Source: an uncultured Candidatus Saccharibacteria bacterium
GTDB lineage: Bacteria; Patescibacteriota; Saccharimonadia; Saccharimonadales; Saccharimonadaceae
Direction: 5' to 3'
DNA length: 42,951 nt
Assembly (NCBI GenBank): GCA_964540835.1
Contig: CAZIOA010000001.1
Location: 1-42,951, forward strand
Part shown: positions 9,355-37,904 of the stretch, piece after piece
How the letters are laid out: every line of letters begins with the position of its first letter
How positions within the stretch are numbered: the first letter of the stretch is position 1
Program-made: the position numbers and the translations under genes
Notes under the pieces: generated by a model
Told to the model about the DNA's origin: nothing
What the model saw: only the letters and a program-made list of their open reading frames with translations
The model's database searches: none

Positions 9355-12300
9355 ATGGATTTTGAGACACGCCTGAACAAGCTGAACGAAGATCAGCGTG
9401 ATGCGGTCGATACTATCGACGGACCGGTGCTGGTGATCGCCGGACCGGGAACCGGCAAAACCGAGCTGCTCAGCATGCGCGTCGCGAACATACTACGGCA
9501 AACCGACACGCTGCCCGAAAACATCCTCTGTCTGACATTTACCGAAAGTGGCGCAGCTAACATGCGCGACCGTCTGACGCGATTTATCGGACAGGCGGCC
9601 CATGACGTCAACATCGGTACGTACCACGCATTCGGCGGTGATCTGATCAAGCGATTTCCGATGTATTTCATGGAGTCACGACTCCAGAGCCCTGTCGATG
9701 ATCTCGGTCAACACCAAATACTCGAAGCCATTATTGACAAGATGAGCTACTCAAACCCGCTCAAACAGACACGCCACCATCTGGGTGACCTGAAAAGTAC
9801 GCTCAGCGAGATCAAGCGTGCGCTGCTATCGAGCGACGACCTCCGCCAGATCGCTACTGAAAATACAACCTTCATCCAGGAAGGTAACCGGGATGTCGCC
9901 GCGATATTCGTTAACTTCACGACTATGCCACGTAAGCTTGAAAAAGCACTGCCTTATTTCGAAAACACGCTTACCGCTATCGAGAAGCACGTCTCTGATA
10001 GTACGCATGAACACATTGTGCCCCTCGCGAACATTGCCCACAAAGAACTTCGTGCCGCGCTAGAAGAAGCGCAGGAAAAAACCACGCCGCTCACGACATG
10101 GAAAAACAAATGGCTCGCAAAAGATGCTGGCAATAAATTTATCCTGGCTGGCGAGCTGGAAAACAGACGAATCAACGCACTGGCCGACGTCCTCGATCAG
10201 TACCAAAAAGCGCTGGAATCGCGTGGACTCTATGACTTTGACGATATGATTATCCGATCCATCCAGGCACTTGAGCGGCATGATGATTTGAAATTCACAC
10301 TACAGGAACAGTACCAGTACTTACTCCTTGATGAGTTCCAGGATACCAACGCCGCGCAACTACGTCTCGTGCAGCTTCTCACGGACAATCCTGTCCACGA
10401 AGGTCGCCCAAATGTCATGGCAGTTGGTGATGACGACCAGGCTATCTATGCCTTTCAGGGCGCCCAGTATTCGAACATGTTGGACTTTCACAGGGCGTAT
10501 CGTGACGTTCATGTCGTCAACCTCAGCCGGAACTACCGTTCGCACGCTGACATCCTGTTAAGCGCGCGCAATGTCGCCGAGCAAATCGCCGAACGTCTGC
10601 ATCATAAGTTTGATGACATGACGAAGACACTCGTCGCATCCAACCCTAATCTGCCCGAAAAAGCCACCATCTCTCGCAACGAATTTCTCAGCGGCATCGC
10701 GCAGTACGATTGGATCGCGCACCAAATCAAGCGGCTTATCGACGACGGGGTAGAGCCGCGCGAAATCGCCGTCCTGGCACCCAAGCATCGACAGCTTGAA
10801 CCACTCGTGCCATATCTCAATGCGCTCGATATACCAGTACGTTACGAAAAACGCGAGAATATCCTGGAAGCGCCAGTCGTCACGCAGCTGCTCGCCATGA
10901 GCCGTCTCGTGCTTGCTATCAAGAGCGGACAGAACGCCCTGGCAAACTCATTGTGGCCTGAGGTACTGAGTTATGATTTTTGGAATATACCGACGCATAT
11001 CATCTGGCAGCTTGCGTGGAAGGTGAGTGATTCCGATGACGACAGCTACAACTGGAACAAAGCAGTACTGGACGAAGACGTCTGTCGCGAGCCAGCGCTG
11101 CTTTTCCTGTCACTCGCCGGGATGAGCGAAGGTGAATCACTGGAGACTATGCTTGACTACCTGATCGGCACATCTCCTGTGGACACGCATGAGGAGTCTC
11201 TACCGTCCATTCGTTCACCGCTCCGCGAACACTACACCGGTCAACAGGCACAAGCAAATAATCCGCAACTATTCTATGAAACACTATCTCATCTGAAGAT
11301 ACTGCGCGAAAAACTGCGTGACTATCAGCAAACGCATGATCGTGCCCTGACGCTCGCGGACCTGATCACGTTCATCGATATGTATCATGCGGCCGAGCAG
11401 CAGATGATCAACACCAGTCCATACAACCAGGACGCCAATGCCGTGCAGATCATGACGGTGTTCAAAGCGAAAGGACTGGAGTACGAGCATGTCTTCCTGC
11501 CAAGCTGCACAGATGAAGTATGGGGCGGCTCATCACGTGGTAATTCCAACAAGCTGACACTGCCGCCAAACCTTGCGCCGATCCGCCACGCTGGCGCGAC
11601 TGACGATGAGCGATTACGCATCTTGTTCGTAGCGCTGACACGCGCCAAATTCGGCCTCTATATGACCAGCTACACGCAGAATTACAATGGCAAAGCGACG
11701 AAGCGACTGAAATACCTGGACGAGCAAGACCAAGGCGACGATACGTTCCGTAGCATGATATTACCATCCGAATCGCAACTGGTACTTGTCGACGATCGCT
11801 CGACTCCGCCTATAGAGAGTCTGGAGCTCGACTGGCGAGTGCGACACTCCGACGGCATCGCCGTCGCGAATCTCCGCGCGCTACTCGAGGATAGGCTACA
11901 GAAATACAAGCTCAGCCCGACGCACCTGAACTCGTTTACCGATGTCATGTACGGCGGACCGGTGAGTTTCTACTACAACACGATACTCCGTTTCCCTCAG
12001 GCTCCGACGCTTGCGAGCCAGTACGGCAACGCCATGCACGAAACCATGGAGTGGATCCAATACCGCGTCGATGAGTCCGGGACGGTACCGACACTCGACC
12101 AGACTGTCGCTGAATTCACCGAGCGGATGAAGGCCAAGAAGCTGCCGGAGCAGCAAGAAACACTGGAGGTCGAAAGGGGAGTGGTAGCGCTATCTGCGTA
12201 TCTGTCACAGCGTTCGCACATATTCAAGCCTGGCGACAAAGCAGAGCACAACTTTGCTCGCGAAGGCGTGGTTATCGATGACGTATATATGAGCGGTAAA

Positions 12301-12693
12301 ATCGACCGCATGGAAATCGACAAAGAGAAGAAAGAAATCGTTGTCGTCGACTATAAGACCGGCAAAGCCTTTGACCGCTGGAAATCCGATGCCAAGCTAC
12401 ATAAGTACCGCCAACAACTCTACTGCTACAAGCTGCTTATCGAGAGCTCACACACGTTCGTAGGCTACAAAGTCGTCGAGGGGCGTCTCGAGTTCCTGGA
12501 GCCAGACGAGACGAACAATATTCACTCATTGTCACTGGCGTTCGACGACGAAGAGCTAGAGAAGAACACACGACTCATGAAACTCGTCTGGCAGCACATC
12601 CATGACCTGTCATTCCCAGACACTTCCGACTATGACGAGTCGCTTACAGGCATCAAACGATTCGAGCAAGATTTGCTCGATGGTAAAATATAA
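9355..12693 (+). CDS. UvrD/PcrA-type SF1 DNA helicase fused to a C-terminal PD-(D/E)xK (RecB/AddB-like) nuclease
   Basis: Walker A GPGTGKT and motif II DEFQDT. C-terminal DRMEI...VVVDYKTGK...YRQQLYCY nuclease signature. 1112 aa. Confidence 0.85.
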   Translation: MDFETRLNKLNEDQRDAVDTIDGPVLVIAGPGTGKTELLSMRVANILRQTDTLPENILCLTFTESGAANMRDRLTRFIGQAAHDVNIGTYHAFGGDLIKRFPMYFMESRLQSPVDDLGQHQILEAIIDKMSYSNPLKQTRHHLGDLKSTLSEIKRALLSSDDLRQIATENTTFIQEGNRDVAAIFVNFTTMPRKLEKALPYFENTLTAIEKHVSDSTHEHIVPLANIAHKELRAALEEAQEKTTPLTTWKNKWLAKDAGNKFILAGELENRRINALADVLDQYQKALESRGLYDFDDMIIRSIQALERHDDLKFTLQEQYQYLLLDEFQDTNAAQLRLVQLLTDNPVHEGRPNVMAVGDDDQAIYAFQGAQYSNMLDFHRAYRDVHVVNLSRNYRSHADILLSARNVAEQIAERLHHKFDDMTKTLVASNPNLPEKATISRNEFLSGIAQYDWIAHQIKRLIDDGVEPREIAVLAPKHRQLEPLVPYLNALDIPVRYEKRENILEAPVVTQLLAMSRLVLAIKSGQNALANSLWPEVLSYDFWNIPTHIIWQLAWKVSDSDDDSYNWNKAVLDEDVCREPALLFLSLAGMSEGESLETMLDYLIGTSPVDTHEESLPSIRSPLREHYTGQQAQANNPQLFYETLSHLKILREKLRDYQQTHDRALTLADLITFIDMYHAAEQQMINTSPYNQDANAVQIMTVFKAKGLEYEHVFLPSCTDEVWGGSSRGNSNKLTLPPNLAPIRHAGATDDERLRILFVALTRAKFGLYMTSYTQNYNGKATKRLKYLDEQDQGDDTFRSMILPSESQLVLVDDRSTPPIESLELDWRVRHSDGIAVANLRALLEDRLQKYKLSPTHLNSFTDVMYGGPVSFYYNTILRFPQAPTLASQYGNAMHETMEWIQYRVDESGTVPTLDQTVAEFTERMKAKKLPEQQETLEVERGVVALSAYLSQRSHIFKPGDKAEHNFAREGVVIDDVYMSGKIDRMEIDKEKKEIVVVDYKTGKAFDRWKSDAKLHKYRQQLYCYKLLIESSHTFVGYKVVEGRLEFLEPDETNNIHSLSLAFDDEELEKNTRLMKLVWQHIHDLSFPDTSDYDESLTGIKRFEQDLLDGKI

Positions 12694-12719: not shown

Positions 12720-12748
12720 TTGACAATTTACGAATACAGATGTATCAT
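12720..12748 (+). promoter_or_regulatory. Sigma70-type promoter driving the non-coding region 12.75-13.2 kb
   Basis: TTGACA (12720-12725), 17-nt spacer, TATCAT (12743-12748). No credible ORF follows. Confidence 0.6.
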
Positions 12749-12864
12749 ATTGTCAGTACAGAGTGTGTGGCGGATATCGTAGGAGTGTCTCGTAGGATAT
12801 CCGCTACACACTTCCTGTCGAACATACTAGTGATGTGCTAGTGATATGGGAGTTGTCGCACACC

Positions 12865-13009
12865 GCGGATGACAATGGCAACCTTGATTTATTCCTAAGC
12901 GGAGACGTGATAATCGCACCGGGAGGGGCTCATCCCGGGAATTGCATCATGACTCTTTACAGGAAAGCATCTTGCTTTCAGGGCGCGGGTTCGATTCCCG
13001 CCATCCGCT
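12865..13009 (+). ncRNA. tRNA-like / tmRNA-TLD-like RNA element, unclassified
   Basis: GCGGG-TTCGATT-CCCGC T-arm (12985-13001) is followed directly by CATCCGC, which is complementary to GCGGATG at 12865-12871. CCTTGA (12882-87) can pair with TCAGGG (12978-83) next to the T-arm. No D-arm or anticodon arm could be drawn, and 145 nt is too long for a tRNA. Confidence 0.4.
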
Positions 13010-13123
13010 CTTTTTGAGCAAGGTACGCTCTTGATTAGTGCACCAAGGACACCAATCAAGAGCATCTGGAGTCGCAGGCTAGAAGACCCTTGAGGTACTG
13101 CTTCGAGGAAGCCTCCTCCACAT

Positions 13124-13199
13124 GGGGGACGCGCTGAGCGCTTACGGGGTCAGCTCAGCGCGTCCCCCGCCCGTCGCATACATGTGACGGGCACTTTTT
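13124..13199 (+). terminator. Tandem hairpins ending in a Rho-independent terminator
   Basis: GGGGGACGCGCTGAGC/GCTCAGCGCGTCCCCC (16-bp stem, 13124-13168), then GCCCGTC-gcatacatgt-GACGGGC followed by ACTTTTTA (13169-13199). Confidence 0.6.
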
Positions 13200-13249
13200 A
13201 TATCTGCATAATATAGCTCTAGTATTTACGTATAATGAGAGAAGGCTTG

Positions 13250-14428
13250 ATGAAGAATTTTTGGGACACGCTACCACGACCATTTTTTGTACTGGCTCCT
13301 ATGGAGGCAGTGACTGATGTTGTGTTTCGTCATGTCGTGGCAGCCGCTGCGCCGCCCGACGTATGGTTTACTGAGTTTACCAACGCGACCGGCTGGGCGC
13401 ATGCAGGCGACAAGGCGATTGGTGAGCGATTGGTGAAAACGGACGACGAGAATCCGATTGTCGCACAGCTATGGGGAAGTGATCCGGCATCAATGAGCAA
13501 GCTTGCCAAACACTGTAAAGAGCTCGGCTACCATGGTATCGATATCAATATGGGATGTCCCGACAAATCAGCCGTCAAGAGCGGCGGAGGAGCGGGTATG
13601 ATCATGAATCCAGAGAATGCGGCTGCCATCATAACGGCAGCGAAAGAGAGCGGACTACCTGTCAGTGTAAAGACTCGTCTGGGTTACAGCAGGGTTGATG
13701 AGTGGCGAGACTGGCTGGCGCATCTGCTGAGACAAGACATCGTGAACCTGACGATACATCTCCGTACCAAAAAAGAGATGAGCAAAGTGCCAGCGCATTT
13801 CGAATTGATACCAGAGATCAAACAACTTCGTGACGAAATAGCGCCACAGACCTTTTTGACGATCAACGGCGATATCATGGACCGCGCGCACGGCATGGAG
13901 CTGGTCGACAAATACGGCGTCGATGGGGTAATGATAGGTCGCGGTATCTTTCACAATCCGTTCGCTTTTGAGAAAGTGCAGCACGAACCGTCCCGTGAAG
14001 AATTGCTTGGTCTACTAAGACTTCATCTGGATTTGCACGACCATCATGACAGTGTATCCCGCATTTCACACCTGGATGAAGCGCAAGGCGCCATTGAAGC
14101 ACGGCACGAACCGTACAAAAGGTACGGTGGAGTGAGTACTAGAGATGACAACGCAGCGATTCGCCAGGAGCCACCAGCGCAGGTAGCTGATGCTGCCTGG
14201 CAGGGTGGCGGTGTGAAAGGCGGGCGAAAGTTTGATCCGCTCAAACGTTTTTTCAAGGTGTATATGCATAGCTTTCCCGGAGCCGCAGAACTGCGAGATC
14301 AACTCATGCATACGAAAGACACTCAGGAAGTTCGCGCGGTTCTTTCTCAATTCTCAAGCATCCCACGACCCACGCGCTTGGATGCAGTACAAGGCGCTGG
14401 TGAAGCACGCAGCGAGTCGTATAGATAA
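13250..14428 (+). CDS. dus: tRNA-dihydrouridine synthase (Dus family) carrying an in-frame repeat-element insertion and a repeat-encoded C-terminus
   Basis: FVLAPMEAVTD and GIDINMGCP Dus motifs; C-terminal helical-domain sequence RKFDPLKRFFKVYMHSFPGAAELRDQL. ATG at 13250 follows GAGAAGG. The ORF-track ATG at 13235 overlaps the TATAAT box. Confidence 0.85.
   Translation: MKNFWDTLPRPFFVLAPMEAVTDVVFRHVVAAAAPPDVWFTEFTNATGWAHAGDKAIGERLVKTDDENPIVAQLWGSDPASMSKLAKHCKELGYHGIDINMGCPDKSAVKSGGGAGMIMNPENAAAIITAAKESGLPVSVKTRLGYSRVDEWRDWLAHLLRQDIVNLTIHLRTKKEMSKVPAHFELIPEIKQLRDEIAPQTFLTINGDIMDRAHGMELVDKYGVDGVMIGRGIFHNPFAFEKVQHEPSREELLGLLRLHLDLHDHHDSVSRISHLDEAQGAIEARHEPYKRYGGVSTRDDNAAIRQEPPAQVADAAWQGGGVKGGRKFDPLKRFFKVYMHSFPGAAELRDQLMHTKDTQEVRAVLSQFSSIPRPTRLDAVQGAGEARSESYR
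14064..14218 (+). repeat. Palindromic repeat element, copy A (inside the dus coding frame)
   Basis: Closing inverted repeat TTTCACACC/GGTGTGAAA. Internal hairpins CCGTAC-aaaag-GTACGG and CAGGTAGC-tgat-GCTGCCTG. Collinear with copies B and C. Confidence 0.85.
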
Positions 14429-14532
14429 TACGACGAGCGAGTACTGGAGCCAAGCAACGCAGTAATGAGCCAAAAGCACTGCAGCGCAGCGGTCTGTGAC
14501 CGCTGGCAGGCAGTGCAGTGCGTGGTCGTGGG
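14362..14532 (+). repeat. Palindromic repeat element, copy B (spans the dus 3' end and stop codon)
   Basis: Closing stem CCCACGACCCACGC/GCGTGGTCGTGGG. Hairpins GTCGTAT-agata-ATACGAC and GCACTG..CAGCGGT-ctgtg-ACCGCTG..CAGTGC. Very similar to copy C. Confidence 0.85.
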
Positions 14533-37406: not shown

Positions 37407-37904
37407 ATGGCAAACAAAAAATCTCCCAAGCGACCATCTGCCAACCAACGAAATATCGTCAATCGCCGAGCGCGGTTTGACTATGAGCTGGGCGACGAGC
37501 TCACCGTCGGCTTGAGCTTGACGGGACCCGAAGTCCGTGCCGCGCGCGACGGACACGTGCAGCTCAAGGGTTCGTACGTGCAGGTACTCAAGGGCGAGCT
37601 CTATCTCCAGGGCGCTAGCTTCAGCCTGAAGCTCAACGAACGCGGCCAGCCCGGCGCGCGCAGCATCGACACCAGTCCGCGCAAGCTACTGGCGCGCCGC
37701 AAACAAATCGATGAACTGATTGCGCGGAAACAAGATGGCATGACGATCGTGCCTACAAAACTCTTCACGACAGGACGCTATATCAAACTCGTCATCGCTA
37801 CCGGCAAGGGCAAAAAGCGCTATGACAAACGGCAAGTTTTGAAAAAACGTGCCGAAGAGCGAGATATCAATCGAGCTCTGAAATCCCATAGGGATTTGGC
37901 ATAG
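37407..37904 (+). CDS. smpB: SsrA-binding protein SmpB
   Basis: NRRARFDYEL, KGSY and a basic C-terminal tail KKRYDKRQVLKKRAEERD. TATAAT box 7 nt upstream of the ATG. Confidence 0.95.
   Translation: MANKKSPKRPSANQRNIVNRRARFDYELGDELTVGLSLTGPEVRAARDGHVQLKGSYVQVLKGELYLQGASFSLKLNERGQPGARSIDTSPRKLLARRKQIDELIARKQDGMTIVPTKLFTTGRYIKLVIATGKGKKRYDKRQVLKKRAEERDINRALKSHRDLA

Follow-up and report, generated by a model that had tools for sequence, protein, structure and literature searches.

The 42,951-nt stretch of DNA analyzed here (the window) is contig C1 of an assembled genome (G000; 968 kb in 124 contigs) from an uncultured Candidatus Saccharibacteria bacterium (GenBank GCA_964540835.1, contig CAZIOA010000001.1). 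Positions 12720-13199 of the window probably constitute a complete, separately transcribed noncoding RNA gene, the core of which is a transfer RNA (tRNA) mimic that cannot be charged and that serves as a handle for RNase P and as a stabilizing chassis. The feature itself is real, a tRNA mimic contained in a longer RNA and found in an unusual enzymatic setting. As judged from its sequence, the module has lost everything needed for decoding and charging and retains exactly the acceptor-stem and T-arm unit that tRNA-processing enzymes recognize. The locus was first noticed in an earlier reading of the bare sequence (the original prediction). The RNA unit has the following parts.

12720-12748, + strand: predicted sigma-70-type promoter, TTGACA (12720-12725), a 17-nt spacer, and TATCAT (12743-12748), matching 11 of 12 consensus positions
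12755-12823, + strand: conserved leader hairpin, closed on the outside by an ACAG/CUGU helix and followed by a conserved tail that is single-stranded (alignments A2 and A3)
12865-13009, + strand: tRNA-like module, 145 nt, aligned end to end by covariance model R2 (see below)
12865-12871, + strand: 5′ strand of the acceptor stem, GCGGAUG, a perfect 7-bp complement to 13002-13008
12872-12881, + strand: D-loop remnant; both strands of the D stem are missing and appear as gaps in alignments A1 and A4 and in the R2 alignment
12882-12983, + strand: extended arm, with a closing helix of 12882-12887 and 12978-12983 in the predicted folds
12985-13001, + strand: T arm, with a 5-bp stem and a canonical 7-nt T loop, a local match (E = 2.3e-5) to positions 346-363 of the transfer-messenger RNA (tmRNA) model
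13002-13010, + strand: 3′ strand of the acceptor stem, CAUCCGC (13002-13008), discriminator U13009, and C13010; no CCA follows
13027-13168, + strand: three hairpins at the cargo position of the unit (13027-13063, 13068-13119, and 13124-13168, the last with a GC-rich 16-bp stem)
13169-13199, + strand: predicted intrinsic terminator, a hairpin (13169-13192) with a 10-bp stem containing 7 GC pairs, followed by a T run

Read from its 5′ end, the module consists of the acceptor stem, the D-loop remnant, a long arm at the place of the anticodon arm, a 1-nt variable region, the T arm, and the discriminator U, after which come C and then a T run. Of what the Rfam tRNA model (RF00005) describes, the acceptor stem and the T arm are present, with perfect 7-bp and 5-bp stems; the D arm and a 7-nt anticodon loop with U33 are not. 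The place of the anticodon loop is taken by a 90-nt insert inside the 6-bp closing helix, and the extended arm is made up of an inner long hairpin, the tip of which (12919-12938) is CCGGGA, an 8-nt loop, and UCCCGG, together with a small side hairpin near 12964-12978. The minimum-free-energy fold of the module, which contains the pairing between 12882-12887 and 12978-12983, has a z-score of -2.84 (none of 200 shuffled sequences folds as well), and the complete 461-nt stretch also gives a much better fold than its shuffles (z = -9.87). A promoter scan returned three promoter-like sites, relative to 0.7 expected from shuffles. Between 12750 and 13234 no credible open reading frame (ORF) was found; all frames are at most 60 amino acids long and overlap RNA helices. 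On the promoter, the 145-nt module with its perfect acceptor pairing and T arm, and the helix that closes the arm, the original prediction described the DNA accurately. The leader hairpin, which it had placed at 12763-12811, is indeed centered there but is longer, reaching 12758-12819, and its three downstream hairpins with a T run are present as well, although the count becomes four with the terminator hairpin included.

Homology of the module is established by comparison with other genomes of the genus (congeners, G001-G022). In a BLAST search of the region against 41 relatives the T arm was the sole match, and those matches lie just upstream of an orthologue of dus, the dihydrouridine synthase gene that also follows the RNA unit in the window. 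With the Rfam tRNA model, 17 congeners were found to carry a total of 21 tRNA-shaped genes upstream of dus (slot loci L013-L032). Five of the 21 are long (117-136 nt, 42.9-51.2 bits): their acceptor, D, and T arms are normal, and 59-71 nt replace the 7-nt anticodon loop. The copy in G022 folds as a clean cloverleaf with a very long anticodon arm, and those in G001 and G021 have the same acceptor sequence as the window and also its hairpin at the tip of the arm. The G012 orthologue is a 74-nt cloverleaf with no insertion and an aberrant loop, and across the slot copies the anticodon loops are damaged in many different ways. A covariance model of the leader plus tRNA-like part (R2) was built from G001, G021, G022, and G012 only, with the window excluded. 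R2 matches window positions 12755-13009 with 66.3 bits (E = 7.5e-21), the top match genome-wide in G000, and its alignment covers the module from end to end, with the D stem shown as deleted.

The next-best match of R2 in the same genome is a canonical tRNA-Gly(GCC) gene (46 bits), and this ranking suggests that the mimic descends from that tRNA type. The original prediction had moreover seen in the module the identity set of tRNA-Gly. This fit does not hold locally because the three tRNA-Gly genes of this genome carry A as discriminator, not U. As separate observations, the 7-bp acceptor stem of a tRNA-Leu(CAG) gene (G000:C5:16240-16326) is identical to that of the module; despite this identity, the D-arm remnant of the module and the homology of the orthologues in the variable loop point to an origin from tRNA-Gly(GCC).

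The second line of evidence is synteny. The unit lies in a gap of 541 nt between two genes.

9355-12693: gene for an AddA-like UvrD/PD-(D/E)XK helicase-nuclease, upstream neighbor of the RNA unit
13235-14428: dus, dihydrouridine synthase gene, downstream neighbor of the RNA unit

In 15 of 18 congener loci the C terminus of the helicase is likewise found within 1.3 kb upstream of dus. The window unit occupies this helicase-dus slot in full, being situated between both genes, on the dus strand, and with its own predicted promoter and terminator. The promoter, the leader hairpin, and the conserved single-stranded motif after the hairpin are common to the window, G001, G021, G022, and G012, and the promoter-like sites of the four congeners are at the equivalent relative position. 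Compensatory double changes occur in four of the 25 predicted pairs of the leader hairpin among these five species. Moreover, a long GC-rich hairpin just before the terminator is present in nine of ten genus genomes folded, that of the window included, and the sequences of these hairpins are unrelated. In G012, G022, G001, and G021, a 10-nt clamp helix joins the flanks of the tRNA-like cluster.

Covariation was assessed in seven aligned tRNA-likes, the window included, five of which are orthologues. In 99.1% of the acceptor-, D-, and T-stem cells the bases form standard pairs, and this value drops to ~40% when the partner columns are slid. Double-sided changes were found in nine of 16 pairs, six of them among the seven pairs of the acceptor stem and two among the five pairs of the T stem. 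At the positions where the window has its gap, the six other tRNA-likes have a 4-bp D stem (A1, A4, and R2 alignments).

The 3′ end of the module has to be seen against the enzyme repertoire of the genus. In G000, all 29 canonical tRNAs and the tmRNA encode their 3′ CCA, and the module does not. The closed genome of the congener G018 (rebuilt; 1,134,346 bp) carries 43 canonical tRNAs for all 20 amino acids, every one with an encoded CCA, and its sole tRNA-shaped gene without CCA is the slot copy. Of the 21 slot tRNA-likes, 20 are without a full CCA and one has it; C74 is kept in all 21 and in the module. C74, directly behind the discriminator, may have been retained as a remnant of contact with RNase P. 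The class II CCA-adding enzyme (PF01743) was detected in none of the 23 genus genomes and in none of four genomes of the same family or order; as a positive control, the same family was found in 61 of 81 genomes of a phylum-wide sample of Patescibacteria. The lineage thus appears to do without CCA addition and repair. Since the module neither encodes CCA nor has a detected enzyme that could add it, it would not be chargeable.

The searches of G000 also gave negative results for the tRNA splicing endonuclease (PF01974), the RtcB ligase (PF01139), the Ro/TROVE protein (PF05731), and RNase Z. The missing CCA, anticodon context, splicing enzymes, and Ro together leave decoding, charging, protein-mediated splicing, and a Y-RNA role without support. 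An RNase P RNA is encoded (G000:C65:985-1450, 237 bits), on the same contig as the tmRNA gene ssrA, and G000 also encodes an RNase J-type enzyme. The family model matches the RNase J-type gene (G000:C23:50-1767, - strand) in two pieces (residues 1-114 and 116-507) separated by ~160 nt; this break may be another in-frame insertion.

The module has the RNase P determinants (7-bp acceptor stem and T arm), and G000 has an RNase P RNA. A 7-bp acceptor stem has been described as a major RNase P determinant, and the YrlA tRNA mimic of Mycobacterium smegmatis is cut by RNase P (PMC4201824). In addition, engineered tRNA scaffolds in which an insert replaces the anticodon stem-loop are processed and accumulate stably in E. 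coli (PMC3753655). From the retained acceptor/T unit and these two precedents we infer an RNase P handle mechanism. In this model, a primary transcript would run from ~12755 to 13199, and RNase P would cut at G12865, so that the leader hairpin is released and a compact tRNA-shaped body is left, with the variable structured arm and the 3′ hairpins attached. This shape would be both the processing handle and the stabilizer for any role of the variable parts.

As for such a role, a more specific version is offered tentatively: the unit might be a natural "tRNA scaffold," an unchargeable, nuclease-resistant chassis processed by RNase P that displays a fast-evolving structured arm and, in other species, small cargo genes. 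Equally speculative is the example of a function for such a scaffold, which could be to act as a decoy or binding platform for tRNA-binding proteins or for tRNA-targeting nucleases, whether from phages or from the host bacterium. The variable content of the slot fits this chassis-plus-cargo picture, as the slot in other species holds extra tRNA-likes or small ORFs. In G021 and G001 there is a second slot tRNA-like (L026:2625-2709, - strand, and L031:1039-1123, + strand, respectively) with an 18-19 nt hairpin in the D loop and an anticodon loop of ~5 nt. In L020 (G017) and L022 (G008), ~500-650 nt upstream of dus, the tRNA-like is followed by a conserved Cys-rich ORF of ~53 amino acids with CxxCxGxG-type motifs, and in L013 (G002), ~260-400 nt upstream of dus, the tRNA-like module is followed by an unrelated ORF of 48 amino acids.

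A pattern scan for the acceptor stem and T arm recovered only two Saccharibacteria-type contigs, which have the same long form, with this acceptor stem and T arm, as L026 (G021) and L031 (G001); the acceptor and T-arm pattern had no match in a metagenome collection, and BLAST of the region against phage records gave no match. Scanning with a tip-hairpin plus T-loop pattern returned mostly chance matches in unrelated phyla. The idea of a mobile repeat was rejected: in G000 neither the region nor its arm occurs a second time, and both are unrelated to the hairpin repeat family found inside dus. The arm in G001 is single copy across the genus. Regarding the flanks of the slot, the C-terminal 200 residues of the AddA-like helicase (window 12094-12690) are 34-51% identical among congeners and Dus is 70-92% identical; for G002 the values are 92% in Dus and 42% in the helicase tail. 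No recombination breakpoint is revealed by the helicase C-terminal identities, which are 34-51% to all congeners.

The principal alternative is that the module is a decaying tRNA pseudogene, that is, a spare copy of tRNA-Gly type in a fast-changing slot that is losing arms, gaining junk, and has no function. We consider this rather unlikely, although it has several points in its favor. The D stem and the variable loop are lost in the window copy only, the slot content differs even from that of the closest relative, G002, and the distribution is patchy; complete canonical tRNA sets elsewhere make decoding independent of the module, and the anticodon loops of the slot copies are damaged in the manifold ways noted above. 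A decaying gene would, however, hardly be expected to show a 7-bp acceptor stem, a 5-bp T stem, and a T loop that are all perfect, with compensatory changes between species, together with a conserved promoter, a covarying leader hairpin, and a conserved GC-rich hairpin and terminator. It would also have to explain why ~0.5 kb of noncoding DNA is kept in a genome of ~1 Mb and why C74 is retained in 21 of 21 slot copies. The conservation of promoter, leader, acceptor stem, and T arm, together with the compensatory changes, favors a maintained tRNA mimic over plain decay.

Several observations weigh against a maintained mimic with the function proposed here. The covariation in the acceptor and T stems may largely stem from different parent tRNAs, and within the five orthologues there are just three double changes. 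The unit is patchy: a covariance model of the leader (R1) finds one copy per genome in five of the 23 genus genomes and has no match in 140 genomes from other genera of the order, and G002, the closest relative by Dus identity, has a different slot content. The window copy is the most degenerate of the group, with no D stem and a variable region of a single nucleotide, and it has no 3′ strand of the clamp helix, having kept only a diverged 5′ strand. Finally, the absence of a CCA-adding activity is judged from sequence alone, and an unrecognized one may exist.

The original prediction had named a tRNA-mimic RNA and a decayed tRNA among its options, and both point in the right direction. The module is tRNA-derived and its D stem and anticodon loop are gone; plain decay, however, is disfavored by the conservation. 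It had also proposed that a canonical ssrA elsewhere, combined with a locus that shows neither transcript nor conservation, would speak against its reading. The first part of that combination exists in this genome; the locus is conserved nevertheless.

Less probable is a tRNA-mimic regulator of dus, acting in cis or trans, in which Dus binds its look-alike so that dus expression is tuned or the enzyme titrated. The unit is always directly upstream of dus and on the same strand, and the 3′ half of its terminator overlaps the possible -35 element of a dus promoter (GTGACG, 17 nt, and CATAAT at 13184-13212). It has also been shown that DusA modifies the tRNA-like domain of another YrlA RNA (PMC4201824). 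On the other hand, a strong terminator stands between the unit and dus, which apparently has its own promoter; the window copy is without the D stem, the part on which Dus enzymes act; and some congener slots also hold unrelated small ORFs. A check of independence from dus in G019 and G004 found the locus missing or at contig ends. The dus gene of the window itself contains in-frame copies of a repeat family (14064-14218 and 14362-14532) that has ~20 copies in the genome, and Dus residues ~272-328 match many other loci. Hairpin repeats of the dus type also occur at G000:C12:4483-4625 and C20:166-308, directly upstream of tRNA-His (C12:4640) and tRNA-Ala (C20:318), respectively.

An intron-containing or otherwise interrupted tRNA gene, spliced to give a working tRNA, is highly improbable. 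The extra sequence in the congener cloverleaf is located exactly at the anticodon loop, and the incomplete assembly is without several tRNA species, among them those for Pro, Lys, Asn, and Trp. Against this stand the missing PF01974 and PF01139 proteins, the lack of any Rfam match to an intron or ribozyme family, group I included, the lack of a recognizable anticodon with U33, the missing CCA and CCA-adding enzyme, and the full canonical tRNA set that the closed genome of G018 possesses without counting its slot copy. ARAGORN with default settings and Rfam at gathering thresholds returned no match at the module locus. Relaxing ARAGORN (intron mode, lowered thresholds) produced a "tRNA-Val" with a 152-nt intron that starts inside the leader hairpin, a forced model that we rejected.

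The idea of a reduced second tmRNA-like RNA that rescues ribosomes with SmpB, which figured in the original prediction as a reduced or unusual tmRNA, has next to no likelihood: the geometry, with a helix directly next to the T arm and no D stem, resembles the tRNA-like domain of tmRNA, smpB lies within the window as predicted (37455-37883), and the T arm matches the tmRNA model RF00023, but that match is local (18.9 bits, positions 346-363, with a gathering score of 47 bits); elsewhere the genome has, as had been anticipated, a canonical ssrA that encodes its CCA and has the G3.U70 pair (G000:C65:3764-4156, 88.2 bits), so that SmpB has its normal partner; the module has G3-C70, as already noted in the original prediction, no CCA, and no tag reading frame, and cannot be aminoacylated without CCA; and its orthologues have ordinary D arms. 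A tag frame was reported neither by ARAGORN at default settings nor at its 80% threshold ("Tag not identified"), and relaxed tmRNA models, being without a tag, were rejected as implausible. The genuine tmRNA was itself overlooked by ARAGORN and found by Infernal (88 bits); its T-loop region looks atypical.

A maintained tRNA mimic as the core of a longer RNA is of interest for several reasons. Saccharibacteria are ultra-small episymbionts with ~1 Mb genomes for which little noncoding RNA has been cataloged, and here ~0.5 kb is devoted to a promoter-driven RNA with a tRNA-shaped core. In a lineage in which CCA is hard-coded in the real tRNAs, a shape that can be neither charged nor decoded separates "tRNA shape" from "tRNA function" and provides a natural counterpart to laboratory tRNA scaffolds. 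For annotation within the genus, the encoded CCA tells real tRNAs from mimics, and the mimics account for odd "tRNA-???" or rare-anticodon calls of tRNA finders. Should the variable arm have a target, these symbionts could prove to use a new type of RNA-based interaction. Our literature searches for Saccharibacteria together with tRNA-like RNAs or tRNA introns returned nothing relevant, and the RNA unit of the helicase-dus slot is absent from the literature searched. The scaffold reading, if true, would thus describe a class of tRNA-derived effector RNA that we did not find in the searched literature.

How, then, does the module compare with known tRNA-shaped RNAs? With canonical tRNA (RF00005) it has in common an acceptor stem of 7 bp and a T arm and loop of canonical form; in its congener orthologues, which pass the tRNA model, the D arm is normal as well and the variable loop measures 5 nt. 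The module differs in that it is ~145 nt long and is without an anticodon loop, a D stem, and an encoded CCA. The tRNA-like domain of tmRNA is similar in having an acceptor stem and T arm, a stemless D-loop analogue, and a long helix that replaces the anticodon arm. Unlike tmRNA, the module carries G3-C70 and is without CCA, tag frame, and pseudoknot region, and its helix encloses only ~90 nt.

A tRNA-shaped module in a longer transcript, with which RNase P or RNase Z defines RNA ends and which does not decode, is also known from the mascRNA of MALAT1 and from the t-elements of plant mitochondria. These are eukaryotic or organellar, and their maturation usually also involves RNase Z and CCA addition, whereas neither RNase Z nor a CCA-adding enzyme was detected for the genome that carries the window unit.

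The YrlA-type bacterial Y RNAs likewise do not decode: they imitate the acceptor, T, and D parts of tRNA, and a long helix takes the anticodon position. In contrast to the situation in YrlA, no Ro/TROVE gene was detected in G000, no Rfam match to YrlA was obtained up to E = 10, and CCA addition to the module would not be possible. The topology is reversed as well: the module has its RNA ends at the acceptor stem, and its long arm is capped by a loop.

The module has the same design as the engineered tRNA scaffolds (Ponchon and Dardel; PMC3753655), in which the acceptor stem, the T arm, and usually the D arm are kept and the insert is structured and hairpin-shaped, as it is in the module. The engineered scaffolds are man-made and depend on E. 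coli processing, including the CCA end, whereas the module in the window is natural and specific to its lineage.

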